A stretch of 64,000 nucleotides of DNA from the NCBI GenBank assembly GCA_947629205.1, contig CANRCV010000001.1, forward strand, positions 19,531-83,530. The letters are read 5' to 3'. Below the pieces are notes generated by a model, which did no database searches, was not told where the DNA came from, and was given only the letters and a program-made list of their open reading frames with translations. Below are positions 2,552 through 47,268 of the stretch, piece after piece. The stretch's first letter is position 1, and each line of letters begins with the position of its first letter. Origin of the DNA: an uncultured Bacilli bacterium. GTDB lineage: Bacteria > Bacillota_I > Bacilli_A > RF39 > UBA660. The position numbers and the translations under genes were made by a program.

Positions 2552-3442
2552 CTAATCACCTGTAATTTCTATTCCTAAAATTTCCAGTATTCTTTCTAAA
2601 TCCTTTTCTCTTTCAAAAGGAATTTCTATTTTATTCTCTTTAATTTTTACTTTAGAACCTATTTTTTCACGCATTACTTTTTCATAAATAGCATAGTGAA
2701 TATTTTTTTCACTTTCTTTTCTTTCAATTTTATTCGTTTTAGCAATATCTTTTTCTTGTAACATTCTTTCTAATTCACGAACACTTAAATTTTCTTGTAA
2801 TACTTTATCTGCTAAATCTTCTATTAAAGATACATCACTTAATTTACTTAAAGCACGAGCATGTCCCATACTTAATTTTCCTGTTTTTACAAGTTCTTTT
2901 GTTGTATTTGGTAATTTTAATAAACCTAGCATATTGGTAACATAACTTCTACTTTTACCAAAACGATGAGCAAATTCTTCTTGTGTCATATGGTTCAGTT
3001 CAATAATATTTTGATAAGCAATTGCTTCATCTATTGGATTTAAATCTTCTCTTTGAATATTTTCAATTAAAGCGATTTCCATCATTTCTTGATCATTAAA
3101 CTCTTTAATAATAGCAGGAATAGTTTCAAGTCCAGCCATCAACGCTGCTTTTGTTCTTCGCTCTCCAGCAATTAATTCATATCCTTTAATTGCTTTTTTA
3201 ACAATAATTGGTTGAACAATTCCATATTCTTTAATACTACTTGCTAATTCTTTAATACTTTCTTCATTAAATGTTTTTCTTGGTTGATAAGGATTGCTTC
3301 TTATTTCCTTTAAAGGAATTTCCACAATATCATTTAATTTGGCAGAATCAACAATCTTTTTTTCAAAATGATTAAAATCAATAATTTCATTGGAAAATAA
3401 TTGCTCTAAACCCTTTCCTAATGCTTTTCTTTTAGTTTCCAT
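2552..3442 (-). CDS. parB: ParB/Spo0J chromosome partitioning protein
   Basis: ParB N-terminal box (...PYQPRK...IVQPIIV...ELIAGERR) followed by an HTH. It overlaps parA by 11 nt. Confidence 0.9.
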   Translation of the reverse strand: METKRKALGKGLEQLFSNEIIDFNHFEKKIVDSAKLNDIVEIPLKEIRSNPYQPRKTFNEESIKELASSIKEYGIVQPIIVKKAIKGYELIAGERRTKAALMAGLETIPAIIKEFNDQEMMEIALIENIQREDLNPIDEAIAYQNIIELNHMTQEEFAHRFGKSRSYVTNMLGLLKLPNTTKELVKTGKLSMGHARALSKLSDVSLIEDLADKVLQENLSVRELERMLQEKDIAKTNKIERKESEKNIHYAIYEKVMREKIGSKVKIKENKIEIPFEREKDLERILEILGIEITGD

Positions 3443-4217
3443 CGCGACTAATCACTTCCTTTGCTAAATTGGCATATGCAAGAGTTGCACGACTTGTGGG
3501 ATCATATACATTTACGGGTTTTCCATGACTAGGAGCTTCCACTAATCGTACAAGTCTTGGAATAATGGTATTAAAAACCTTATTTTTAAAATACTTGCGA
3601 ACCTCTTCCATTACTTGAAGTCCAATATTCGTTCTTCCATCTAACATCGTCAGTAAAACACCTTCAATTCTTAAATCAGGATTCATTTGTGATTGAACTA
3701 AAATAATGGAATTTAAAAGTTGATTAATTCCTTCTAATGCATAATATTCACATTGTACAGGAATAATCACTGAATCACTAGCAACTAAAGCATTCATTGT
3801 AGAAAGACCTAAAGAAGGTTGGCAATCAATTAATATATAATCATAACTATCTTTAATATCTTGAAGACGCATATTTAGTTGATTGTTTTGTTGAAATGTT
3901 TGATCTTCAAACATTTTTTTAATAAATTCAACCTCTACTCCCGCTAAATTTAAAGTAGCAGGAATAACAGATAAATTTTTAAACTTTGTTTTAATGATGG
4001 CATCTTTTATAGAACAAGCTCCAGTAATTACATCATAAATATCATTTTTAAAATCACTCGTATTTAAACCAAGTCCATTAGAAGCATTACCTTGTGAATC
4101 CAAATCAATAAGAAGCGTCTTTTTATTTTCATTTCCTAAAGCAGCAGCCAAGTTAATACTTGTCGTTGTTTTTCCAACACCACCTTTTTGATTTACGATT
4201 GAAATAACTTTTGCCAT
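3432..4217 (-). CDS. parA: ParA/Soj ATPase
   Basis: Deviant Walker A motif KGGVGKTT near the N-terminus. Length and position upstream of parB fit. Confidence 0.9.
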   Translation of the reverse strand: MAKVISIVNQKGGVGKTTTSINLAAALGNENKKTLLIDLDSQGNASNGLGLNTSDFKNDIYDVITGACSIKDAIIKTKFKNLSVIPATLNLAGVEVEFIKKMFEDQTFQQNNQLNMRLQDIKDSYDYILIDCQPSLGLSTMNALVASDSVIIPVQCEYYALEGINQLLNSIILVQSQMNPDLRIEGVLLTMLDGRTNIGLQVMEEVRKYFKNKVFNTIIPRLVRLVEAPSHGKPVNVYDPTSRATLAYANLAKEVISRDGN

Positions 4218-4941: not shown

Positions 4942-6882
4942 TTAATTATTTATTGGTGTAAGAACGATACGGAAACTACGCTTTGATAGTCCACTATCAC
5001 CTTCATTAGAAAAAGCAAATATATTAGCTTGGATACCACTATTACTTTCGCCACCTCTCATAAACCATGGTAATTCGTTACCAATAAAACGAGCCCAACT
5101 TTCATTCCATGAATTAATTAGGTTATTACTTGTACTATATTTTTTCAACCCAAATGGTCCTAATTCTCCTGTGGCATCTCCTAATATTCTTTTATTATAA
5201 GTTGTGTAAACTGAACTATACTCATAAGCATCATAATATTTTTCATTCTCCTCCACTAAATCACTACTCCATATATTGCCATTCATATATCCCGTCACTA
5301 ATTCAAATGCACCCCCTGACATATCATATATTCCGCTATAATTTCCAGTTGTACTTGCAACGTTGCTTTTTTTGTTTTTGTAATTATAGCTTTTACCATT
5401 ATCTTGATTTGGTGTTACTATGTCATAACCATTATATTCAGTATATCCACTTGTTGGCATTTCTATTGCAGCATATCCTGTTACAAAATTTTGACTATTA
5501 TTTATCATTATTTCTGTACATATACCATCTGTACATATTCCATACTTAGAATGCGATAGATAAGCTACTGCTCCCCACTCTGTATTTTTCATCATATGGC
5601 TATCTAATTCTCTTTGATAAGCATAACTAACATCAAACATATTTTTTACTGTTATGCCTCTCCAACTATAAACATTTGGCTTTATAATAACTTTTGATGA
5701 ATTACTTTCATCTTTTTGAGCTTCTGTTGTACTGTTAGCATCTTTATATCCAGTTTCAAACTTTCCTACCCACATTCCTTTTGAACCTTCAAATGCTGTG
5801 AAGGCTGGATGTGTCATCCATTTATCCACTGCACATGAACCATCCTCTCCACTTGCATTTGGTGTTTCACAACTTGTTTCTGTATTTTCTGTATCATCTA
5901 AATCAAATTTAATTTCTATTGTTTGAGCTGCATTCTCATTTAATGGTCCATTTGCATCTGTATATTCTCCCATATTAAAGATTTTATATTTATATTTTGG
6001 TATCCATACAAAATAACTTTCGATGTTATCTTCTGGTATTGTATCTCCTTCTTTGTATTCTTTTGTATTGTCTACTAATATAACAGCATTTGCCCATTCC
6101 TTTTCTTCATAGTTATACCATTCTTCTTTTGTATTGGCTTTGGTTACTTTTCCTGTATCATCTATGATGACTGGTATTAGTTTATCATTGGTAGTTGGTT
6201 CTTCTGCTATTTCATTTGCAGTTAACATAGCTACTGGTTTACTACTTGTTTCTAATACTGGATCTGCTCCATGTAAGATTGGTTCTGTATATTCTGCTAC
6301 GGTATTCATTTTTCCATCTACTACTATTTTACTTATAAAATTTTTATTCATAGCATCATCATTGACGGTGACATCTTCATCCATCCATAGTTTTAATTTA
6401 AATTCTCTACTTTCTTGTCCTTTTAATGTTCCATTCATTAAATCTTTTGCTTCTATTGATGTATAATCATCTCCACTATAGGTGGTTACATCACTTGGAT
6501 ACTCACTTAATATTTGTTTTTGGCCACCATTTAGTTCTACTGCTACATACTTACTATCTAATATATTTTTTTCATTTTCACTACTTTCTTTTAATTTTTC
6601 TAGTTTTAATGAAAAATTAAGAGTTGTATTACATTTATTTTTTATTGTAAAACTATATGGTGTTAATTTTTGTGCTTCTTCATCTGTTATTGGGTATGCT
6701 TTTTCTAAATGAATAGCATCACTTTCATTTTCAAGAATCAAACTTAAACAATCACTTTGAATTTGATTCATACCTTGTTGTTCTGCAGTAGATGTCCACC
6801 ATGCAAAACTGGAACCTATCATTACAATTATTGTAAAGAGCATTCCTATTACTAAATATTTTTTCTTTTTACTTTTTTCCAT
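4942..6882 (-). CDS. exported two-domain protein, paralog 1: SipW/TasA-like N-terminal region plus C-terminal FGE-sulfatase (SUMF1)-like domain
   Basis: N-terminal signal/TM followed by ...SSFAWWTSTAEQ. C-terminal motifs EWGAVAYLSHSKYG, GIYDMSGGAFELVTGY, FMRGGES and SFRIVLTP parallel the FGE motifs SWxDAVAYCNW, GLYDMSGNVWEW, RGGSW and GFRC. RBS GGAGA upstream of the ATG at 6882. Confidence 0.6.
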   Translation of the reverse strand: MEKSKKKKYLVIGMLFTIIVMIGSSFAWWTSTAEQQGMNQIQSDCLSLILENESDAIHLEKAYPITDEEAQKLTPYSFTIKNKCNTTLNFSLKLEKLKESSENEKNILDSKYVAVELNGGQKQILSEYPSDVTTYSGDDYTSIEAKDLMNGTLKGQESREFKLKLWMDEDVTVNDDAMNKNFISKIVVDGKMNTVAEYTEPILHGADPVLETSSKPVAMLTANEIAEEPTTNDKLIPVIIDDTGKVTKANTKEEWYNYEEKEWANAVILVDNTKEYKEGDTIPEDNIESYFVWIPKYKYKIFNMGEYTDANGPLNENAAQTIEIKFDLDDTENTETSCETPNASGEDGSCAVDKWMTHPAFTAFEGSKGMWVGKFETGYKDANSTTEAQKDESNSSKVIIKPNVYSWRGITVKNMFDVSYAYQRELDSHMMKNTEWGAVAYLSHSKYGICTDGICTEIMINNSQNFVTGYAAIEMPTSGYTEYNGYDIVTPNQDNGKSYNYKNKKSNVASTTGNYSGIYDMSGGAFELVTGYMNGNIWSSDLVEENEKYYDAYEYSSVYTTYNKRILGDATGELGPFGLKKYSTSNNLINSWNESWARFIGNELPWFMRGGESNSGIQANIFAFSNEGDSGLSKRSFRIVLTPINN

Positions 6883-7001
6883 ATCATCAATTCTCCTATA
6901 TACAACTTATGATTGTATATAATATATATTTTACAACTTGAGGTTGTTATAGTCAATACAATTTCAAGTTGTATGATAATTTTCATTTAAGAGGTGTAAT
7001 T

Positions 7002-7223
7002 ATGAATATAGAAAGATTAAAAGAAATTCGTGAAGATAAAGATTTATATCAAAAAGACATAGCAAAAGTTTTGAATGTTTCTCAACAACAATATAATAAA
7101 TATGAATTAGGAATTAATTCCATTCCTATAGAAAAATTATATAAACTAGCAGATTTATATGAAACAAGTATTGATTATTTAGTTGGTAGAACCAATGAAA
7201 GAAAACCTTATCCTAAAAAATAA
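7002..7223 (+). CDS. XRE-family helix-turn-helix transcriptional regulator (about 73 aa), divergent from paralog 1
   Basis: Classic XRE HTH (...QKDIAKVLNVSQQQYNKYELG...). Start moved to ATG 7002, which has RBS AAGAGGTG. C-terminal tail GRTNERKPYPKK. Confidence 0.8.
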   Translation: MNIERLKEIREDKDLYQKDIAKVLNVSQQQYNKYELGINSIPIEKLYKLADLYETSIDYLVGRTNERKPYPKK

Positions 7224-7293: not shown

Positions 7294-9174
7294 TTATGGT
7301 GCAAGAACAATACGGAAGCCCATATTACTCTCTTCTCCACCACCTTCACCACAAAAAGCAAAGATTCCCGCTTCTACACCATTATGTTTGATTGAACCAC
7401 GATCCAGCCATGGTCCATTTTTAAACATAAACCAAGCATTATCAAAATGCCAAGAAGAAACATTTCTATCAGCATTACCATTGTAATGCACAAATGGTCC
7501 TAGTTCACCCGTTGCATCTCCTAGTATTCTATTTTTAAATACCAAATTATTTGTAGCATAATTATATACATCGTAATATTTTGAATTTTCTTCTTGATTA
7601 TTAAACGGAAAAGTACTAGTACTAAATCCACTTGAACCAAAGGTAAATCCAGTATTATTTGTTCCTTTTATTACTCCCATTGTATATTCCTTTGATCCAC
7701 CACTCATATCATATATTCCACTATAATTTCCTGTTGTACTTGCAACTTGACTTTTTGAATTTTTGTAATTTATCGTTTTTGTTCCATCAGCACCTAATCC
7801 ACTTGGGGTTTCATAGTCCCTATAGGCACTTAATCCAGTCATAGGTTCTTCTGTTGCCGCATAACCTGTAACAAATGCACTATTATTATTGATTCTTACT
7901 TCTACACATTTATCCCCATCACATGTTCCATACTTTGAATGGGATAAATAAGCTACTGCTCCCCATTCAGTATTCTTCATCATATGACTATCTAAGTCTA
8001 TTTGATAGTTATAACTTGTATCAAACATATTTTTTACTGTTATGTTTCTCCAACTATATACATTGGGTTTGATAATAACTTTTTCTGCTGCCAATTCATT
8101 GTGTTGCATAGCTTCTGTTGCACTTGTTACTCCATCATATCCAGTTTCAAATTTACCTACCCAAAATCCGTTTGTACCAAATGCAGTAAATGCTGATGGT
8201 GTCATCCACTTATCTACTGCACATGAGCCATTCTCTCCACTTGCTGGTGTTGTACATTCTATTGTGTTATCTACTGTATCATAGATTCCAAATTCTATTT
8301 CTATTTCTTGTGACTTTTCTTGATACTCATCTTGAGAAAGTCCATTATATTCTCCCATATTAAAGATTTTGTATTTATATTTTGGTATCCATACAAAATA
8401 ACTTTCTATATTTTCTTCTTTTATAGTTCCATCTTCTTCTATAGTACCATTATCTTTTAAGATAACCGCATTTGCCCATTCTTTTTTAGAATAATCATAC
8501 CATTTTTCTTCTATATTTGCTTTAGTTACTGTTCCATCTGTTTCATTTATTTTTACTGGTATTAAATTATCTTTTAGTACTGGATCTGCTCCATTTAATG
8601 TATCCTCTGTATATACTTTTGCTAGTGTATTTAATGTAGCATTCACTACGACTTTACTTTCAAATGTTTTATTCATGGACTCTTCATCTTCTACTGTTAC
8701 ATGTTCATCCATCCATAGTTTTAAACTATATTGTTTTGATTCTTTTCCATTTAGTATTCCTGTTGCTAGTTCATATCCTTTTTTATATTTTTCTAATGTT
8801 GTTTCTTTTAAACTATTTAATATTCTTTTGGTATTACTATTTAATTGTACTGCTATATATTCTTCTTTTAATGTACTACTATCACTTATACCTAAGTTTA
8901 CTGTATAGTTAATACTTGTATCACATGTATTTTCTACTTTAAAAGTAAATGGTGTTAAATCTTGTGCTTCTTCATCTGTTATTGGGTAGGCTTTTTCTAA
9001 ATGAATAGCATCTTTTTCTTCATTCAGTGATACTTTTAAACATGTACTTGTAATTTGATTAATTCCACTTTGTTCTGCAGTGGATGTCCACCATGCAAAA
9101 CTGGAACCTATAATAAGTGTTAATAAAAGTAATCCCCCAACAACACTGTAAATTACTCTTTCTTTTTTCTTCAT
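7294..9174 (-). CDS. exported TasA-like/FGE-like two-domain protein, paralog 2 (626 aa from ATG 9174)
   Basis: Start trimmed to MKKKERVIYSVVGGLLLL... (signal peptide). It has the same AWWTSTAEQSGINQI motif and the same C-terminal FGE-like motifs (GIYDMSGG, EWGAVAYLSHSKYG, FRIVLAP). Confidence 0.6.
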   Translation of the reverse strand: MKKKERVIYSVVGGLLLLTLIIGSSFAWWTSTAEQSGINQITSTCLKVSLNEEKDAIHLEKAYPITDEEAQDLTPFTFKVENTCDTSINYTVNLGISDSSTLKEEYIAVQLNSNTKRILNSLKETTLEKYKKGYELATGILNGKESKQYSLKLWMDEHVTVEDEESMNKTFESKVVVNATLNTLAKVYTEDTLNGADPVLKDNLIPVKINETDGTVTKANIEEKWYDYSKKEWANAVILKDNGTIEEDGTIKEENIESYFVWIPKYKYKIFNMGEYNGLSQDEYQEKSQEIEIEFGIYDTVDNTIECTTPASGENGSCAVDKWMTPSAFTAFGTNGFWVGKFETGYDGVTSATEAMQHNELAAEKVIIKPNVYSWRNITVKNMFDTSYNYQIDLDSHMMKNTEWGAVAYLSHSKYGTCDGDKCVEVRINNNSAFVTGYAATEEPMTGLSAYRDYETPSGLGADGTKTINYKNSKSQVASTTGNYSGIYDMSGGSKEYTMGVIKGTNNTGFTFGSSGFSTSTFPFNNQEENSKYYDVYNYATNNLVFKNRILGDATGELGPFVHYNGNADRNVSSWHFDNAWFMFKNGPWLDRGSIKHNGVEAGIFAFCGEGGGEESNMGFRIVLAP

Positions 9175-9303
9175 AAAATTCTCACTTTCTTTGCATGTAA
9201 TATGCGTAATACGTATATTACTTTTTAAATTTATTATATACGTAAAACGTATATAAGTCAATGCGTGAGACGTATATAATGTAAAATAAATTCAGTGATT
9301 AAT

Positions 9304-9525
9304 ATGAATATTGAAAGATTAAAAGAAATTAGAGAAGATAGAGATTTAAAGCAAATAGATATAGCAAAATTCCTTAAAGTTACACAAGCTCAATATTGTC
9401 GTTATGAAATGGGAGTTAATATAATTCCATTAGAAAAAATAGATAAACTTGCTGAATTTTATAATACTAGTGTTGATTATTTAATTGGTAGAACCAATGA
9501 AAGAAAACCTTATCCTAAAAAATAG
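9304..9525 (+). CDS. XRE-family HTH regulator 2 (about 73 aa), divergent from paralog 2
   Basis: MNIERLKEIRED...DIAKFLKVTQAQYCRYEMG... Same GRTNERKPYPKK tail. The last ~38 nt of its coding sequence are identical to the matching segment of XRE-1. Confidence 0.8.
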   Translation: MNIERLKEIREDRDLKQIDIAKFLKVTQAQYCRYEMGVNIIPLEKIDKLAEFYNTSVDYLIGRTNERKPYPKK

Positions 9526-40805: not shown

Positions 40806-42671
40806 ATGAAATATGAAGTTATAGTAGTTGGAGGAGGACACGCAGGTTGTGAAGCTGCTCATATGGCTGCTTTTTTAGGTAAAAAGACATTACTGATCAC
40901 AATGAATAAAAAAAATATTGCTGATATGCCTTGTAATCCATCTATTGGAGGAACTGCTAAAGGAGTTATTGTTCGTGATATAGATGCTCTAGGTGGCCTT
41001 ATGGGTAAAGTTGCAGATGAATCCCATTTTCAAATGAAAATGTTAAATAGTAAAAAAGGACCTGCGGTGCAATCTCTTCGTTGCCAAGCTGATAAAACAA
41101 CTTATCCTAAAAATATGTTAAAACGATTAGAAAATACTGAAAATTTAACCATTCAAGAAGATTTAGTAGAAGACTTAATTGTTGAAAACAATAAAATAAA
41201 AGGAATAGTGCTAGCAAATAATGAAAAAATAGAATGCGATGCCTTAATATTAACAACAGGAACGTATTTAAAAAGTAATATTTTAAGAGGTGCTGTTTCA
41301 ACAGAAGGTGGTCCACACGGAGAAGGAAGAAGCAATCATTTAAGTGATAATTTAAAACGTTTAGGTTTTACGATTCAACGTTTAAAAACCGGAACTCCTC
41401 CTAGAATTAAAGCAGATTCTATTGACTTTTCAAAATGTAGTATTGAAAAAGGGGATAATAAATATTACACCTTTTCTCACGATGATAAACCAAAATACAA
41501 AATAGAAGACCAACAAAACTGTTATTTAATTTATACGAATCAAGAAACACATCAAATTATTTTAGACAATCTAGATAAATCCAGTATGTATGGAGGGTAT
41601 GTAACAGGAGTTGGACCAAGATATTGTCCATCCATTGAAGATAAAATTGTACGTTTTAAAGATAAAGAAAGACATCAATTATTTTTAGAACCGGAAAGTA
41701 TGTATTATGATGAATGGTATATTCAAGGTTTTTCTACAAGTATGCCCGAAGATGTTCAAGAAAAAATGGTACATAGTTTAAAAGGACTCGAAAATGCGAT
41801 AATTACCAAATATGCTTATGCCATAGAATATGATGCGATAGACCCTTTACAACTAAAACCATCCTTAGAAACAAAAGTAATTGAAAACTTATTTACAGCA
41901 GGGCAAATTAACGGAACAAGTGGTTATGAAGAAGCAGCAGGACAAGGTCTAATCGCCGGAATAAACGCCGCAAGAAAATTAGAGAATAAGAGTCCATTTA
42001 TTTTAAAAAGAAATGAATCCTATATAGGTGTTTTAATTGATGATTTAGTAACGAAAGGAACAAAAGAACCTTATCGAATGCTTACATCTCGTGCTGAATA
42101 TCGTTTACTTCTTCGCCACGATAACGCAGATTTACGTTTAAGAGGTTATGCTCACGAACTAGGAACTATCACCGATGAAATGTATCAAAACTACTTAAAT
42201 CGCGTACAAAAAATAGAAGAATTAAATGACTTTTTAGATACCACAAAACTAGAACTAACCGAAGATGTAAAAGCAAAATTTCAAGAACAAAACTTTAATT
42301 TACCTTTAAATAAAATGAGTTTAAAAGAACTATTAAAAAGACCAGAAATTACATTTGAATTTTTAGATACACTTTTAAATATCCCATTTGAAGAAGATAT
42401 CAAAGAAGTCGTAAGTATTGCGATTAAATATGATGGGTACATTAAAAAAACCGAAAAAGAAATAGAAAAAATGTTAAAGTTAGAAGAAAAACAAATTCCA
42501 AAAGATATTGATTATAGCAAAGTAAATAACTTAGCAAGTGAAGCTCGTGTGAAATTAGAAAAAATAAGACCAATTTCCATTGGCCAAGCTGCAAGAATTA
42601 GTGGTGTTAATCCTGCCGATATTTCAATACTTGCTATTTACTTAAAGAAAGAGTATGGTAAAAATGACTAA
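40806..42671 (+). CDS. mnmG: tRNA uridine 5-carboxymethylaminomethyl modification enzyme MnmG (GidA)
   Basis: FAD-binding motif VIVVGGGHAGCEAA. 621 aa. Confidence 0.95.
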   Translation: MKYEVIVVGGGHAGCEAAHMAAFLGKKTLLITMNKKNIADMPCNPSIGGTAKGVIVRDIDALGGLMGKVADESHFQMKMLNSKKGPAVQSLRCQADKTTYPKNMLKRLENTENLTIQEDLVEDLIVENNKIKGIVLANNEKIECDALILTTGTYLKSNILRGAVSTEGGPHGEGRSNHLSDNLKRLGFTIQRLKTGTPPRIKADSIDFSKCSIEKGDNKYYTFSHDDKPKYKIEDQQNCYLIYTNQETHQIILDNLDKSSMYGGYVTGVGPRYCPSIEDKIVRFKDKERHQLFLEPESMYYDEWYIQGFSTSMPEDVQEKMVHSLKGLENAIITKYAYAIEYDAIDPLQLKPSLETKVIENLFTAGQINGTSGYEEAAGQGLIAGINAARKLENKSPFILKRNESYIGVLIDDLVTKGTKEPYRMLTSRAEYRLLLRHDNADLRLRGYAHELGTITDEMYQNYLNRVQKIEELNDFLDTTKLELTEDVKAKFQEQNFNLPLNKMSLKELLKRPEITFEFLDTLLNIPFEEDIKEVVSIAIKYDGYIKKTEKEIEKMLKLEEKQIPKDIDYSKVNNLASEARVKLEKIRPISIGQAARISGVNPADISILAIYLKKEYGKND

Positions 42672-43377
42672 AGAAGAGTTTTATGAAGCCTTAAAGAATC
42701 TAAATATAGAATTAACAAATGATGAAAAAGAACAACTGGAAATTTATAAGGATTTCTTAAAAGAATACAATACCCATACCAATCTAACGGCCATTAAAGA
42801 AGATAATGGAATATATTTAAAACATTTTTATGATTCTTTAACAATCAATTCTTACATCAAAGAAGGTTTAAAAGTATTAGATATTGGAACCGGAGCAGGT
42901 TTTCCAGGTATGGTTCTTGCCATAGTAAATCCTAATACTTCTTTTACTTTATTAGATTCTAATAACAAAAAAACAACTTTTTTAAATCAATTAAAAGAAA
43001 AACTTGATTTAAAAAATGTTGAGGTTGTAAATGCACGAGCAGAGGAATATGTAAGAGAAAATAGGGAATTGTTTGATCTTGTGACCTCTCGTGCTGTAGC
43101 AAAACTTTCCATTTTAGCAGAACTATCCCTACCAGCTTTAAAAATAGAAGGCTTATTTATTCCTTTAAAAGCAAATATTGATCATGAAATAGAAGAATTA
43201 AATATTGCTTTATCTGTTTTAAATGGAAAGATAGAAAAAAAAGAAGAATTTAGTTTACCTATTGAAAATAGTAAGCGAACAATTCTACAAATAAAACATT
43301 TTGCTAAAACGGAAACTATTTTTCCAAGAAGTTATGATAAAATTTTGAAAAAGCCATTGAAAAATTATAATAAATAA
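42655..43377 (+). CDS. rsmG: 16S rRNA (guanine527-N7)-methyltransferase RsmG (GidB)
   Basis: SAM-binding motif DIGTGAGFPG. Position after mnmG. Confidence 0.9.
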   Translation: MVKMTKEEFYEALKNLNIELTNDEKEQLEIYKDFLKEYNTHTNLTAIKEDNGIYLKHFYDSLTINSYIKEGLKVLDIGTGAGFPGMVLAIVNPNTSFTLLDSNNKKTTFLNQLKEKLDLKNVEVVNARAEEYVRENRELFDLVTSRAVAKLSILAELSLPALKIEGLFIPLKANIDHEIEELNIALSVLNGKIEKKEEFSLPIENSKRTILQIKHFAKTETIFPRSYDKILKKPLKNYNK

Positions 43378-43412
43378 GGTATATTAATAATAGGCTAAAG
43401 GGGCTGATTAGG

Positions 43413-45071
43413 ATGAATATCGACAAAAATATTCTAGAAATACCAATTGAGGACATTATTCCCAATCGTTTTCAACCAAGACTTTCATTTAACGAAGAAG
43501 GAATTACAGAACTAGCAGAGTCTATAAAACAACATGGGATTATTCAACCCCTTGTCGTAAGAAAACTTGGAGATAAGTATGAAATTATAGCTGGAGAAAG
43601 AAGATATAAAGCCGCTACAATGGCTGGTTTAACAAAAGTTCCAGTTATTATTTCTAATATAGATGATAATAAAAGTGCAGAGGTGGCTCTAGTGGAAAAT
43701 ATACAAAGAAGAAATTTAACAGCAATTGAAGAAGCAAAATCATATAAAAATCTGTTAGATAGAGGATATTTAACACAAGAACAACTTGCAAATAAAATGG
43801 GTGTATCTCAAAGTTCTATTGCCAATAAGCTACGTTTATTAAACTTAGATGAAGAGGTACAAGAAGCTTTATTAAATGAAAAAATAAGTGAAAGACATGC
43901 GAGAGCATTACTTGCACTTGAAGATAAAGAAGAACAAAAGAAATGGTTAAAAAGAATTATTGATGAAAGATTAACAGTAAGACAATTAGATTTAGAACTT
44001 AAAAAATTACAAGAAAATGGAGATTCTGCTGATAGTGATGAAATTAAATTAGTCAATATTAATCCTAATTTAGATGAAATCGTATCCAATGCAGAAGATA
44101 TTGTTGTACAAAGAGCACCACATGATGTTGCGAGTATGTTAATTCCAGAGGTACAAGAAGAACCAAAAGAAGAAATAAAAGAAGAACAAGAAACAAAACC
44201 TTCTAATAAATTCTTTAATTTTTTAGAAAATGAAGAAGCAAACATGAGTGTCATTGAACCAGATGAAATTTTAGATACATTTACAACTACTTCTGTAATG
44301 GAAAATCCTATAGAATCTACTGTAGAAGAACAACCAAAAGAACCAGTTTTAAATAATGATTCTCCTACTATAAATGAAGAGGTAACACCAATAGAAAATC
44401 CGTTTACAGATACACCAATGATAAATACCCCACAAGAAGAAAATAAAGTAGATTCAGTTGAATTATTAGATGAATTAGATGATGAAGAAGATTTACAACC
44501 AATGAAACCAGAATTAAATTCATTTATTACAGAAGATATTGTAAATGAAATTGCTAATGAACCAGATGAAGAAGCAAATGATTCTGCTATGGCAAATATC
44601 TTTGAAACTCCATCTACTGAACCAATTAATAATGAAAATACAATTGTAGAAGAAACACCAAGTATAGATTCTGTTCCTGTAATAGAACCTACACCTATAG
44701 AAGAACCAGTAAATACTCAACAAGAAGAAACTAAAACAAATGAAGAAGAACCATTTAAATCTATTTTCTTTAATCATGAAGAAGAAAAACCAGAAGAAGT
44801 AGTTTCTCCTATTGAAGATAATAAAATAGAAGAAATAGAACCAACAGTAGAAGAAAATATTGTTGATCCATTAGATAGTATTGTAACTTTAGAACCTAAT
44901 TATCAACAAAAACAAGAAGAATTAGCAGGAAGAGATTTAAAAACAGCTATTAATACTGTTCGTAATACCATTAAAGAGTTAGAAAATAAAGGCTTTCTAA
45001 TTGAAACCGAAGAGGCTGATTTAGAAGATGTTTATCATATAACCATAAAAATTGATAAAGATAATAAATAA
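43413..45071 (+). CDS. noc: ParB-family protein in the Noc position (after rsmG), carrying an unusually long (~300 aa) acidic/Pro-rich low-complexity insertion before a conserved C-terminal segment
   Basis: ParB N-terminal box (...RFQPR...IIQPLVV...IIAGERR) plus an HTH. Residues about 250-510 are E/P/T/N-rich. 552 aa against ~280 aa for typical Noc. Confidence 0.7.
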   Translation: MNIDKNILEIPIEDIIPNRFQPRLSFNEEGITELAESIKQHGIIQPLVVRKLGDKYEIIAGERRYKAATMAGLTKVPVIISNIDDNKSAEVALVENIQRRNLTAIEEAKSYKNLLDRGYLTQEQLANKMGVSQSSIANKLRLLNLDEEVQEALLNEKISERHARALLALEDKEEQKKWLKRIIDERLTVRQLDLELKKLQENGDSADSDEIKLVNINPNLDEIVSNAEDIVVQRAPHDVASMLIPEVQEEPKEEIKEEQETKPSNKFFNFLENEEANMSVIEPDEILDTFTTTSVMENPIESTVEEQPKEPVLNNDSPTINEEVTPIENPFTDTPMINTPQEENKVDSVELLDELDDEEDLQPMKPELNSFITEDIVNEIANEPDEEANDSAMANIFETPSTEPINNENTIVEETPSIDSVPVIEPTPIEEPVNTQQEETKTNEEEPFKSIFFNHEEEKPEEVVSPIEDNKIEEIEPTVEENIVDPLDSIVTLEPNYQQKQEELAGRDLKTAINTVRNTIKELENKGFLIETEEADLEDVYHITIKIDKDNK

Positions 45072-45097
45072 AGTGCTAAAAAAAACTAGCACTTTTT
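45072..45097. terminator. bidirectional terminator hairpin AGTGCTA-A8-TAGCACT followed by a T-run, between the noc-like gene and the RHH gene
   Basis: Read from the sequence. It overlaps the RHH stop codon. Confidence 0.5.
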
Positions 45098-45283
45098 ATT
45101 TTTATCCTCTTTTTCTTCCTCTTCTAATTCATTTAATACATATTCACAAGCTTGAATTACAAATCTTGAAAAATTAGATTCAGTTCCTTCTAAATATTTT
45201 TCAATTTTTTCAATTAATGGTAAAGGAAACCTAATTGTTTTTGTTTCACTTTCTTTTCTATCTATGTTTAATTTAAAAGCCAT
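45086..45283 (-). CDS. small ribbon-helix-helix (Arc/CopG-like) DNA-binding protein with an acidic tail, divergent from paralog 3
   Basis: N-terminal beta-strand KTIRFPLPL, then helices IEKIEKYL and NFSRFVIQACEYVL. RBS GGTGA. Confidence 0.5.
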   Translation of the reverse strand: MAFKLNIDRKESETKTIRFPLPLIEKIEKYLEGTESNFSRFVIQACEYVLNELEEEEKEDKNKKC

Positions 45284-45330
45284 ATTTTCACCACTTTCTT
45301 ATTACAATAAATTTTATAATAAAAATGCAA

Positions 45331-45346
45331 TGCAATATGTATTGCA
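45331..45346. promoter_or_regulatory. 16-bp perfect inverted repeat TGCAATA-TG-TATTGCA in the divergent RHH/paralog-3 promoter region (candidate operator)
   Basis: Read from the sequence. A further TGCAA half-site lies 2 bp upstream. Confidence 0.5.
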
Positions 45347-45387
45347 AAATGTAATACAAAAATGGTAAAATCAAAATAGGTGAGAAT

Positions 45388-47268
45388 ATGGAAAAAAGTA
45401 AAACAAAATATTTGATTATAGTAGGAATACTTATTATGATGTTAATTGCTATAGGTTCGGGTTATGCCTGGTGGACGTCTACTGCAGAACAAAGTGGAAT
45501 TAATCAAATTCAAAGTGATTGTTTAAAAATATCTTATACAGATGATAACCCTATAAAATTAGATACAACGTATCCTTTAACAGATAAAGAAGGAGAAGCA
45601 TTAACTCCTTATACATTTACTATACAAAATACTTGTTCTAACGCTATAGATTATACTATAAATTTAGGTATAAGTGATACTAATACTTTAAATGATGAAT
45701 ATGTTGCAGTCAAGTTAAATGATAATACGAAAAGAATATTAGATAGTTTAAAACAAACAAAAATTAAAAACTACAATAAATCTTATGAACTAGCAACAGG
45801 AATACTAAATGGAAGTGAATCAAAAGAATTTAGTTTAAGACTATGGATGGATGAACATGTAACATTAAGTGATGATGCAATAAATAAAACATTCTCAAGT
45901 AAAGTAGTAGTAGAAGCAACCTTAAATACATTAGCAAAAGTATATACAGATGATGAATTAAATGGAGCAGATCCAGTATTAAAAGATAATTTAATACCAG
46001 TAAAAATAAATGAAACAGATGGAACAGTAACTAAAGCAAATATAGAAGAAGAATGGTACAACTATAAAAATAAAGAATGGGCAAATGCCGTTATATTAAA
46101 AGATAATGGAACTATAGAAGAAGATGGAACTATCAAAGAAGAGAGTATAGAAAGTTATTTTGTATGGATACCAAAGTATAAATACAAAATCTTTAATATG
46201 GGAGAATATAATGGATTAAGTGAAGGAGCATATGAAGAAAAATCTCAAGAAATAGAAATTGAATTTGGAATCTATGATACAGTAAATAACACAATTGAGT
46301 GTACAACACCACCAAGTGGAGAAAATGGATCATGTGCAGTAGATAAATGGATGACACCATCAGCATTTACAAGTTTTGCTACAAATGGATTCTGGGTAGG
46401 TAAATTTGAAACTGGATATGATGGAGCAACTAATGATACTTTTGCTACAGGTACTACATGTAAGAATGAGGTTAATGTAACTAATGTTTCAAAAATTATA
46501 ATTAAACCAAATTCTTATTCATGGAGATGTATTAATATGGCAAATATGTATAAAAATTCATACAATTATCAAAGAGACTTAGATAGTCATATGATGAAGA
46601 ATACAGAGTGGGGAGCAGTTGCCTATCTATCACATTCCAAATATGGAACATGTGATAGTGGTAAATGTACAGAGATTAGATTGAATAACAATACAAATTA
46701 TATTACTGGATATGCAGCAGTTAATCAACCAGTAGGTGGACTAGATGTTTATAAAGAATATATAGGTACCACGCCTGGTATAGATAACGATAAAACTTAT
46801 AACTATAAAAATAAAAAAAGTACAATAGCAAGCACAACTGGAAATTATAGTGGAATTTATGACTTATCAGGAGATTGTTGGGAAATCGTAATGGGGGTTA
46901 CAACTAGTGCCACTAGTGCAAAAGATGCAACTTTAGAAAATATACAATTAGGAACATCAGGATTAACTAAAGATGATATAAAAGATAGAAAATATGTAGA
47001 TTTATATACAAGTGGTACATACTTACAATATAATAGAAGAATACTTGGTGATGCAACAGGAGAGATGGGAACGTTTAGATTATCACCTGAAAAGAGTGGT
47101 AGGATACGAGGATCTTGGTATAATGATCTAGGATCACAAATTGTTTCAAACAGCTCTTTTATTCGAGGTGGATCGTTTGGGCAAGGTGTGGAAGGTGGAT
47201 CTTTTGAGTTTTCTATGGGTGTTTATATTAGAAATGATTTTTCTTTCCGTATAGTCTTAACACCATAA
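45388..47268 (+). CDS. exported TasA-like/FGE-like two-domain protein, paralog 3 (626 aa)
   Basis: Signal peptide followed by GSGYAWWTSTAEQSGINQIQSDC. C-terminal motifs EWGAVAYLSHSKYG, GIYDLSGDCWEIV, FIRGGSFGQG and FSFRIVLTP give the closest FGE-like match of the three paralogs. Confidence 0.65.
   Translation: MEKSKTKYLIIVGILIMMLIAIGSGYAWWTSTAEQSGINQIQSDCLKISYTDDNPIKLDTTYPLTDKEGEALTPYTFTIQNTCSNAIDYTINLGISDTNTLNDEYVAVKLNDNTKRILDSLKQTKIKNYNKSYELATGILNGSESKEFSLRLWMDEHVTLSDDAINKTFSSKVVVEATLNTLAKVYTDDELNGADPVLKDNLIPVKINETDGTVTKANIEEEWYNYKNKEWANAVILKDNGTIEEDGTIKEESIESYFVWIPKYKYKIFNMGEYNGLSEGAYEEKSQEIEIEFGIYDTVNNTIECTTPPSGENGSCAVDKWMTPSAFTSFATNGFWVGKFETGYDGATNDTFATGTTCKNEVNVTNVSKIIIKPNSYSWRCINMANMYKNSYNYQRDLDSHMMKNTEWGAVAYLSHSKYGTCDSGKCTEIRLNNNTNYITGYAAVNQPVGGLDVYKEYIGTTPGIDNDKTYNYKNKKSTIASTTGNYSGIYDLSGDCWEIVMGVTTSATSAKDATLENIQLGTSGLTKDDIKDRKYVDLYTSGTYLQYNRRILGDATGEMGTFRLSPEKSGRIRGSWYNDLGSQIVSNSSFIRGGSFGQGVEGGSFEFSMGVYIRNDFSFRIVLTP

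Follow-up and report, generated by a model that had tools for sequence, protein, structure and literature searches.

Two paralogous XRE regulators of an uncultured Bacilli bacterium, probable local repressors with separate sets of three operators in divergent promoter regions

Small Cro/CI-type repressors that act through multiple dyad operators at divergent promoters, and that occur in specificity variants like phage immunity groups, are a familiar kind of regulator. The 434 repressor recognizes the half-site ACAA...TTGT, and co-crystal structures show Q28 and Q29 reading the first two base pairs of ACAA. In the CTX phage, rstR encodes a small XRE repressor divergent from rstA, the ig-2 intergenic region carries several operators, and from one phage type to another the RstR repressor and its operators change jointly, as a cassette. 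CylR2 from Enterococcus faecalis recognizes an inverted repeat that lies within a region of divergent promoters. SinR from Bacillus subtilis binds SinI/SlrR through a C-terminal domain and has a GTTCTYT-type site. The C proteins of restriction-modification systems, XRE dimers of ~80 aa, occupy adjacent dyad operators at their own promoter, autoregulate in a concentration-dependent manner and fall into several operator-specificity groups. Here, we analyze two paralogous XRE genes, XRE-1 and XRE-2, in a 64,000-nucleotide stretch (the window) of contig CANRCV010000001.1 from an uncultured Bacilli bacterium (RF39; UBA660), where each faces a gene for a large exported protein. Judging from the sequence, both are probably autoregulated local repressors with orthogonal specificities, each acting on three dyads in its own divergent promoter region. 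We found no description in the literature of this XRE family, nor of paralogous XRE–operator insulation in these organisms.

The genes form two divergent pairs in tandem, paralog-1/XRE-1 and then paralog-2/XRE-2, as follows (ORF, open reading frame; AF2, AlphaFold2):

4942..6882, minus strand: paralog-1, a 646-aa exported protein and presumed XRE-1 target (ORF list)
7002..7223, plus strand: XRE-1, a 73-aa HTH_3 protein with predicted recognition helix QQQYNKYE at residues 28-35 (Pfam HTH_3, AF2)
7294..9174, minus strand: paralog-2, a 626-aa exported protein and presumed XRE-2 target, with its ATG at 9174 (ORF list)
9304..9525, plus strand: XRE-2, a 73-aa HTH_3 protein with predicted recognition helix QAQYCRYE at residues 28-35 (Pfam HTH_3)

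The paralog-1/XRE-1 intergenic region (IGR1) spans 6883-7001 and the paralog-2/XRE-2 region (IGR2) 9175-9303. XRE-1 and XRE-2 are 73% identical, the two exported proteins 52%. Each XRE is monocistronic, lying between its divergent big gene and a convergent gene.

Set against the described systems, this arrangement resembles each of them in part. RstR (NF041951), the best NCBIfam match, scores 57.4 and 50.4 bits with the two XREs, below its cutoff of 80; the XREs measure 73 aa against ~110 for RstR, and their locus has no phage context. CylR2 is, like the XREs, a stand-alone protein without a sensor domain (a 66-aa XRE dimer; weak match, E 7.7e-4), but it works with the membrane protein CylR1, for which the XRE locus has no counterpart gene. 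SinR at tapA-sipW-tasA is likewise an XRE-type repressor adjoining, and divergent from, secreted matrix protein genes, but no SinI-like antagonist is encoded at the XRE locus. The C proteins are likened here by description only, and the XRE locus differs from theirs in having no restriction-modification genes and a divergent exported-protein gene as target. By sequence, the closest solved relatives in the PDB are the ImmR DNA-binding domain, Pli0006, PezA, DdrO and CylR2, all of which are placed, together with SinR, in the 434 Cro structural family (PMC8960796).

Each intergenic region contains three 19-bp dyads built on one half-site that is shared within the region, the consensus being ATACAACT-N3-AGTTGTAT in IGR1 and ATATACGT-N3-ACGTATAT in IGR2. 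The six sites are listed below without strand, with scores from position matrices for class A and class D (the helix classes of XRE-1 and XRE-2, respectively) that were built from other genomes only and scanned over all 64 kb:

6900..6918: IGR1 O1, ATACAACTTATGATTGTAT (ATACAACT-TAT-GATTGTAT), best class A matrix match in the window, 22.9; 2 mismatches to consensus
6931..6949: IGR1 O2, TTACAACTTGAGGTTGTTA (TTACAACT-TGA-GGTTGTTA), third-best class A match in the window, 13.4
6956..6974: IGR1 O3, ATACAATTTCAAGTTGTAT (ATACAATT-TCA-AGTTGTAT), second-best class A match, 21.9; 1 mismatch
9200..9218: IGR2 O1, ATATGCGTAATACGTATAT (ATATGCGT-AAT-ACGTATAT), 1 mismatch; class D score 24.2; kept in 8 class D IGRs
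9236..9254: IGR2 O2, the perfect palindrome ATATACGTAAAACGTATAT (ATATACGT-AAA-ACGTATAT), best class D match in the window, 25.0
9259..9277: IGR2 O3, CAATGCGTGAGACGTATAT (CAATGCGT-GAG-ACGTATAT), 3 mismatches; class D score 22.3; kept in class D IGRs

The top three class A matches in the 64 kb are thus the three IGR1 sites, with the next match at 10.9, and the top three class D matches are the three IGR2 sites, with the next at 6.9. Scores across the two regions are negative, the best class A match in IGR2 reaching -13.1 and the best class D match in IGR1 -9.9. Since matrices derived from elsewhere rank these sites first to third in the window, the motifs are not generic AT-rich repeats; each set is private to its own intergenic region. 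When up to 3 mismatches are allowed, the 19-bp pattern of IGR2 is found in the window only at the three IGR2 sites (0.44 expected), and ACGTATAT occurs there in 6 copies, 4 of them within 67 bp of IGR2 (shuffle expectation 1.34). In IGR1, O1 was also called by an inverted-repeat scan (repeat I5), O2 sits at the position homologous to the O2 of other genomes, with its centre ~-61 from the XRE ATG, and O3 is centred at ~-36, as elsewhere in the family.

A preliminary description of this DNA, made from the sequence alone, had already picked out several of these elements. Its bounds for IGR2, the palindrome at 9236-9254, the extra ACGTATAT copies at 9211-9218 and 9270-9277, and TTACAACTTG at 6931-6940 are all exact. 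It had further joined TTACAACTTG to CAAGTTGTAT as one inverted repeat of IGR1; both motifs exist, the second at 6965-6974 and not at 6966-6975, but the pairing does not hold, as it takes its left half from O2 and its right half from O3. The ATATACAA-N7-TTGTATAT element is present at 6898-6920, one base from the 6897-6919 first given, and has 9-nt arms at 6897-6905 and 6913-6921. The two ATGCGT-N3-ACGTATATA direct repeats reported in IGR2 are also there, the first copy ending in T (ACGTATATT), and are really two imperfect copies of the 19-bp palindrome.

The XRE family provides the context in which these two operator sets can be read. Homologues number more than 1300 at E below 1e-6, and XRE loci gathered from genomes, assemblies and a metagenome scan gave 97 instances with 75 non-redundant intergenic regions. 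Classes were defined only by protein residues 27-37. At least six helix classes, each with its own half-site, are found among these regions, and each class has its dyad at the same three positions, centred ~-36, -61 and -92 from the XRE ATG (classes A, C, D, E and F). The helices and their operators pair as follows:

[ST]QQQYNKYELG (XRE-1 type, class A): operator ATACAACT-N3-AGTTGTAT
TQQQYSKYELG: operator ATACATCT-N4-AGATGTAT
PQQNYSRYE[LI]G: operator ATACACCA-N4-TGGTGTAT
TQAQY[CS]RYEMG (XRE-2 type, class D): operator ATAT[AG]CG[TC]-N3 dyad
[ST]QKQYSLYETG: operator ATATCCTC-N4-GAGGATAT
TQQVYSEYELG: operator ATACATGA-N4-TCATGTAT

For a seventh class, with the helix [ST]QVQYSRYE[TR]G, the motif in use seems to be ATATAACC. 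Classes A, C, D and E carry 2.6-3.0 own-class sites per region, and across the 75 regions class A sites are absent from class D regions and class D sites from class A regions. When dyads were detected without any class consensus, ATATACGT was recovered in 8/8 class D regions and ATACAAC[TC] in 17 of the 21 class A regions. The half-sites all begin with ATA (positions 1-3) and differ at positions 4-8; the helix changes at residues 27, 29, 30, 32, 33 and 36, and these changes map onto half-site positions 4-8. Mutual information is correspondingly concentrated between residues 29, 32, 33 and 36 and positions 4-8, with values near zero for positions 1-3. All family members have Q28, and all half-sites have A at position 3; position 4 is mostly C in classes with Q29 and T in classes with A29 or K29. 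Across the eight class D regions, each from a different sample, the sequence shows no variation at O1, O2, O3 and the -35 box but differs in the stretches between these elements. That operator sites track the helix across genomes supports separate specificities for XRE-1 and XRE-2. This tracking, together with the absence of class A sites from class D regions and the reverse and with the negative cross-scores, argues for the earlier suggestion that the two copies differ in operator specificity and form insulated pairs.

The proteins themselves are consistent with this pairing. Both match the Pfam helix-turn-helix (HTH) family HTH_3 (PF01381) well above its cutoff of 23, at 55.1 bits for XRE-1 and 44.6 bits for XRE-2. 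The AF2 model of XRE-1 (predicted local distance difference test, pLDDT, 91.4) has five helices, at residues 4-12, 17-23, 28-35, 43-52 and 57-60, and a non-helical tail at 61-73, with H3 (28-35) as the predicted recognition helix. Residues 27-37 read SQQQYNKYELG in XRE-1 and TQAQYCRYEMG in XRE-2. A comparison of the two recognition helices, proposed in the preliminary description, thereby finds the base-reading positions changed: within H3 the proteins differ at exactly 29, 32 and 33 (Q/A, N/C and K/R), and the flanking residues 27 and 36 differ too.

The numbering of these residues can be compared directly with that of the 434 repressor, whose sequence was checked against 1R69 and 2OR1. XRE-1 aligns with its DNA-binding domain without gaps and with coinciding numbering, although the identity is only 30%; the 434 repressor has T27 Q28 Q29 S30 ... 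Q33 where XRE-1 has S27 Q28 Q29 Q30 ... K33. The class A operator contains ACAA...TTGT, the half-site of 434. XRE-1 combines Q28 and Q29 with ACAA within its half-site, and XRE-2 combines Q28 and A29 with the half-site ATACG. As in 434, where each operator region holds three 14-bp sites (PMC1636474), three dyads lie between divergent promoters. Unlike in 434, the sites are 19-20 bp long with ACAA-N7-TTGT and not N6, the XRE ends at residue 73 without a C-terminal oligomerization or RecA-cleavable domain, and a Cro partner is missing. Opposite each XRE stands a chromosomal gene for an exported protein and not a lytic operon, and the locus lies outside prophage, among housekeeping neighbors.

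The origin of the two specificities is a separate matter from their existence. The preliminary description envisaged duplicated regulator copies that had diverged; the difference in specificity stands, but local divergence after duplication is so far one candidate history. The parts of XRE-1 and XRE-2 outside the helix share 76% identity, a value neither higher nor lower than among same-class proteins of other samples, and this identity did not separate in-situ divergence from cassette exchange, being 76% either way. XRE-2 is 79% identical to the class D XRE at locus L024. In relatives syntenic with the window (L086-L089; XRE-spoVG-veg-yabG-ksgA), a class A XRE with class A operators occupies the place where the window (9175-9525) has class D. 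The presence of a class A cassette at this spoVG-adjacent site indicates that regulator and operators behave as an exchangeable unit, and on these comparisons we consider cassette exchange to be as likely an origin for the XRE-1/XRE-2 pair as in-situ divergence. One XRE class can also face different target types. An identical XRE (P0193), found at one fixed location on the chromosome with typA and pncA on either side (L081-L085; XRE at 3001), faces different exported-protein genes by sample, which encode a 380-aa glycine-rich protein, a 319-aa protein or a 315-aa Flg_new protein. At the loci with the 319- and 315-aa variants, just one operator is still recognizable.

The C-terminal tail, T[DN]ERKPYPK, is common to all specificity classes, in keeping with the near-identical C-termini first reported for the two copies. 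Since it is kept in every class, it is the obvious candidate for a shared input, and from its sequence conservation we consider it a candidate handle for a derepression signal. At the DNA level, the last 40 nt of XRE-1 (7183-7223) and XRE-2 (9485-9525) are identical, synonymous sites included, and the central part of the genes is ~25% different. Gene conversion, or constraint on the tail-coding DNA, could account for the identical 3' ends.

How occupancy of the operators might act on transcription depends on where the promoters lie. A sigma-70-type consensus scan over 3 kb gave the following predictions:

6928..6956, minus strand: predicted paralog-1 promoter, -35 TTGACT (6956..6951), 17-nt spacer, -10 TAAAAT (6933..6928); 10/12 match
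9233..9261, minus strand: predicted paralog-2 promoter, -35 TTGACT (9261..9256), 17-nt spacer, -10 TATAAT (9238..9233); 11/12, best in the scanned region
6950..6977, plus strand: predicted XRE-1 promoter, weak -35 TAGTCA, 16-nt spacer, -10 TATGAT (6972-6977); 9/12 match
9275-9280, plus strand: predicted XRE-2 -10, TATAAT, overlapped by O3

The two best matches in the scanned 3 kb are the minus-strand promoters of the two big genes, and they lie at homologous places. In both intergenic regions, O2 takes up the spacer of the predicted big-gene promoter and reaches into its -10, O3 starts at the -35 of the big-gene promoter and ends in the predicted -10 of the XRE itself, and O1 lies just past the predicted start of the big gene, at ~+12 for paralog-1 and ~+17 for paralog-2. 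Similar boxes recur in the family: an xGTCAA box, the reverse complement of TTGACx, lies between O2 and O3 in 44 of the 75 regions, in the form TGTCAA/AGTCAA it is invariant among the class D regions, and many regions of the family have a TATGA[TGA] box after O3.

We envision XRE-1 and XRE-2 as stand-alone, dimeric repressors of the Cro/CI type (HTH_3). Occupancy of O2 and O3 would occlude the strong sigma-A-type promoter of the adjacent exported-protein gene, and occupancy of O1 would add a roadblock just downstream of the target's start. O3 would also cover the regulator's own -10 and so limit XRE synthesis, resulting in negative autoregulation. Because the operators lie over both promoters, occupancy should shut off the exported-protein gene and limit the synthesis of the regulator. 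XRE-1 would read the half-site ATACAACT and XRE-2 the half-site ATATACGT, a difference that would arise at helix residues 29, 32 and 33, with flanking changes at 27 and 36. Since the half-sites differ, neither XRE should occupy the operators of the other, and the two modules should therefore be regulated independently. In this scheme, the sites, their restriction to the two regions of the window, their shared positions and their covariation with the helix are observed, and we infer the binding itself, repression rather than activation, the transcription starts and the derepression signal.

Several observations weigh against the proposal of local, autoregulated repressors or call for care in reading its support. 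IGR1 O2 is weak, scoring 13.4 against 10.9 for the best match that is not an operator. The XRE protein has no sensor domain and no partner gene nearby. The class motifs and the classes come from one data set, so that only the 64-kb matrix scan and the consensus-free detection are independent of it, and the mutual-information and covariation statistics carry no correction for phylogeny. The promoter scan overall is not above shuffles (21 matches vs 22 expected), and the promoter and start-site assignments are hence predictions. The XRE-2 promoter also lacks a recognizable -35, and a TGTAAAAT box downstream of O3 may be an alternative XRE -10 or may mark the region where transcription starts. 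This box (9280-9287; L119-L129, ~-26..-19 from the XRE ATG) is invariant in the eight class D regions.

On the target side, the genes divergent from XREs of this family belong to several protein families, and 49 of the 52 unique ones start with a hydrophobic segment, which indicates that the XRE family is consistently wired to exported-protein genes. Several of these targets carry a SipW-like xYAxF/W signal motif. The model for SipW-dependent signal peptides (TIGR04088; cutoff 19 bits) gave 13.6 bits for paralog-2 (E 0.055) and no match for paralog-1. In the AF2 model of paralog-1 (pLDDT 86), three parts stand out: a hydrophobic helix at the N-terminus (3-25), a beta-sandwich and a large C-terminal domain (~230-646). 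The latter is modeled at high confidence and has a single strong fold match, TaqVP (E 1.3e-8), which is the C-type-lectin-fold variable protein of a diversity-generating retroelement (DGR). Membership in a DGR was considered for paralog-1 and rejected: the fold is TaqVP-like, but the window holds no template repeat, and the 3' ends of the three big paralogs repeat only each other. Paralog-1 belongs to no Pfam family, no Pfam model exists for the big-protein family, and a profile of that family against the PDB gave only a marginal match, 5vf4 (E 0.12). Its homologues exceed 5000, with many paralogs per genome in uncultured gut Bacilli, and 583 loci were confirmed among GTDB representative genomes, nearly all of them again uncultured gut Bacilli. 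An XRE is adjacent at 3 of 80 big-protein genome loci, which makes the XRE pairing a trait of a subset of this family and not of the whole.

The third big paralog in the window (45388..47268, plus strand) is 62% identical to paralog-2 and has no XRE. It faces a divergent 65-aa ORF (45086..45283, minus strand) that matches phrog_949 (E 1.5e-9) and for which Pfam returned no significant family; by eye, it reads as a putative ribbon-helix-helix protein. The intergenic region between them has a 9-nt dyad set of its own, TGCAATGCA / TGTATTGCA / TGTAATACA, at 45326-45358. The 65-aa ORF looks like a different small regulator in the same role. Orthogonal half-sites would keep the two XRE modules and this differently regulated third paralog independent of one another.

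Among other explanations of the locus, the one that fares best is a bidirectional switch of the lambda/434 kind. Here, an XRE bound at O2 would repress the target and activate its own weak promoter from a class II position, and at higher concentration would shut itself off from O3, giving bistable, heritable ON/OFF states. Measured from the predicted starts, each of these two operators is centred at ~-19 of one promoter and at about -42 to -44 of the other, and the XRE promoters have a poor -35 (TAGTCA in IGR1, none in IGR2) where the target promoters are near consensus. This spacing and these poor -35 boxes mean that an XRE might activate itself from O2, as lambda CI activates itself from OR2. 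In IGR2, the order of strength would also fit, O2 being the strongest site (25.0) and O3 the weakest (22.3), and the 434 repressor, with which the XRE aligns, has three sites per operator region too (PMC1636474). However, the order is reversed in IGR1 (O3 21.9, O2 13.4), the transcription starts are predictions only, no second, Cro-like regulator is present, and an activation surface is not assessable from sequence. We consider such a switch possible but doubtful.

A role of the palindromes as RNA or DNA hairpins, either as a 5' stabilizing stem-loop in the exported-protein mRNA or as a terminator-like element, is very improbable. O1 does lie in the predicted 5' untranslated region of both target mRNAs, with stems of -7.2 to -7.5 kcal/mol (z-scores -1.9 and -2.9). 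In addition, the sole terminator-like match in the scanned 3 kb falls on IGR2 O1 with its flanking bases (9197-9221), where the plus strand, antisense to the 5' end of paralog-2, forms a hairpin of 11 pairs with a T run after it. Yet a hairpin needs only self-complementarity, whereas one half-site is common to the three sites and changes from genome to genome along with the recognition helix of the neighboring protein; O2 and O3, moreover, lie upstream of the target's predicted start, and the stems are weak.

It is also most unlikely that the XREs belong to another kind of module, such as a toxin-antitoxin system, prophage immunity or a defense regulator, with the exported-protein genes as incidental neighbors. 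Their best NCBIfam match is indeed the CTX-phage RstR subfamily, and they also have matches among the transcription-regulator families of PHROG and, in PADLOC, to the HTH portions of the RmrA and CapH models; in one relative (L090-L093), a RelB-family gene follows a class C XRE on the same strand (3334-3582 in L090). These matches, however, cover only the generic HTH domain and fall below curated cutoffs, the big proteins match no PADLOC or PHROG family, and the divergent exported-protein partner recurs in the 49 of 52 cases above. Neither XRE is flanked by a gene for a toxin, a protease or a phage function; the neighbors are the big genes and spoVG-veg-yabG-ksgA. A type II antitoxin with an HTH domain (HipB, PezA, MqsA and similar) was rejected as a candidate in its own right, as each XRE is monocistronic, with no cognate toxin gene, and the antitoxin models score far below their cutoffs. 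Lastly, chance repeats in AT-rich promoter DNA, suggested by the 27% G+C of the window and by a roughly twofold enrichment of TACAACTT alone (9 copies vs 4.4 expected), are effectively refuted by the ranking of these sites first to third in 64 kb by external matrices, and by their conservation where the flanking bases are not conserved.

The surroundings of the two modules are those of a core chromosomal, Firmicute region: spoVG, veg, yabG and ksgA lie downstream of the tandem pairs, and parA/parB upstream, on the minus strand (2552-4217). About 40 kb from parA/parB, at 42655-45071, are rsmG and then a gene for a 552-aa ParB/Noc-like protein whose C-terminal extension is long, acidic and of low complexity.

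Our favored reading remains that XRE-1 and XRE-2 are local repressors insulated from each other by their half-sites. A more far-reaching picture, which we offer as speculation and think rather unlikely as a whole, is that uncultured low-G+C gut Bacilli possess a natural library of at least six or seven orthogonal mini-repressor/operator cassettes, each a 434/lambda-like bidirectional switch with three operators for one exported (surface) protein gene, exchangeable between loci and sharing a tail that serves as a handle for an anti-repressor or protease; cell-to-cell variation of a large surface-protein repertoire, between heritable ON and OFF states, would then arise through transcription factors and not through DNA rearrangement. 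Within the window, the two modules make a solid, though conventional, example of paralogous local repressors that each have their own operators. The helix–operator covariation across the family is unusually clean and experimentally tractable, and amounts to a natural recognition code in a compact scaffold (73 aa, 19-20 bp sites, at least six classes) that could serve as a test of HTH specificity rules and as a source of orthogonal repressors. The pairing of XREs with these genes also gives a first regulatory handle on a large, unannotated family of exported proteins with a C-type-lectin-like domain.

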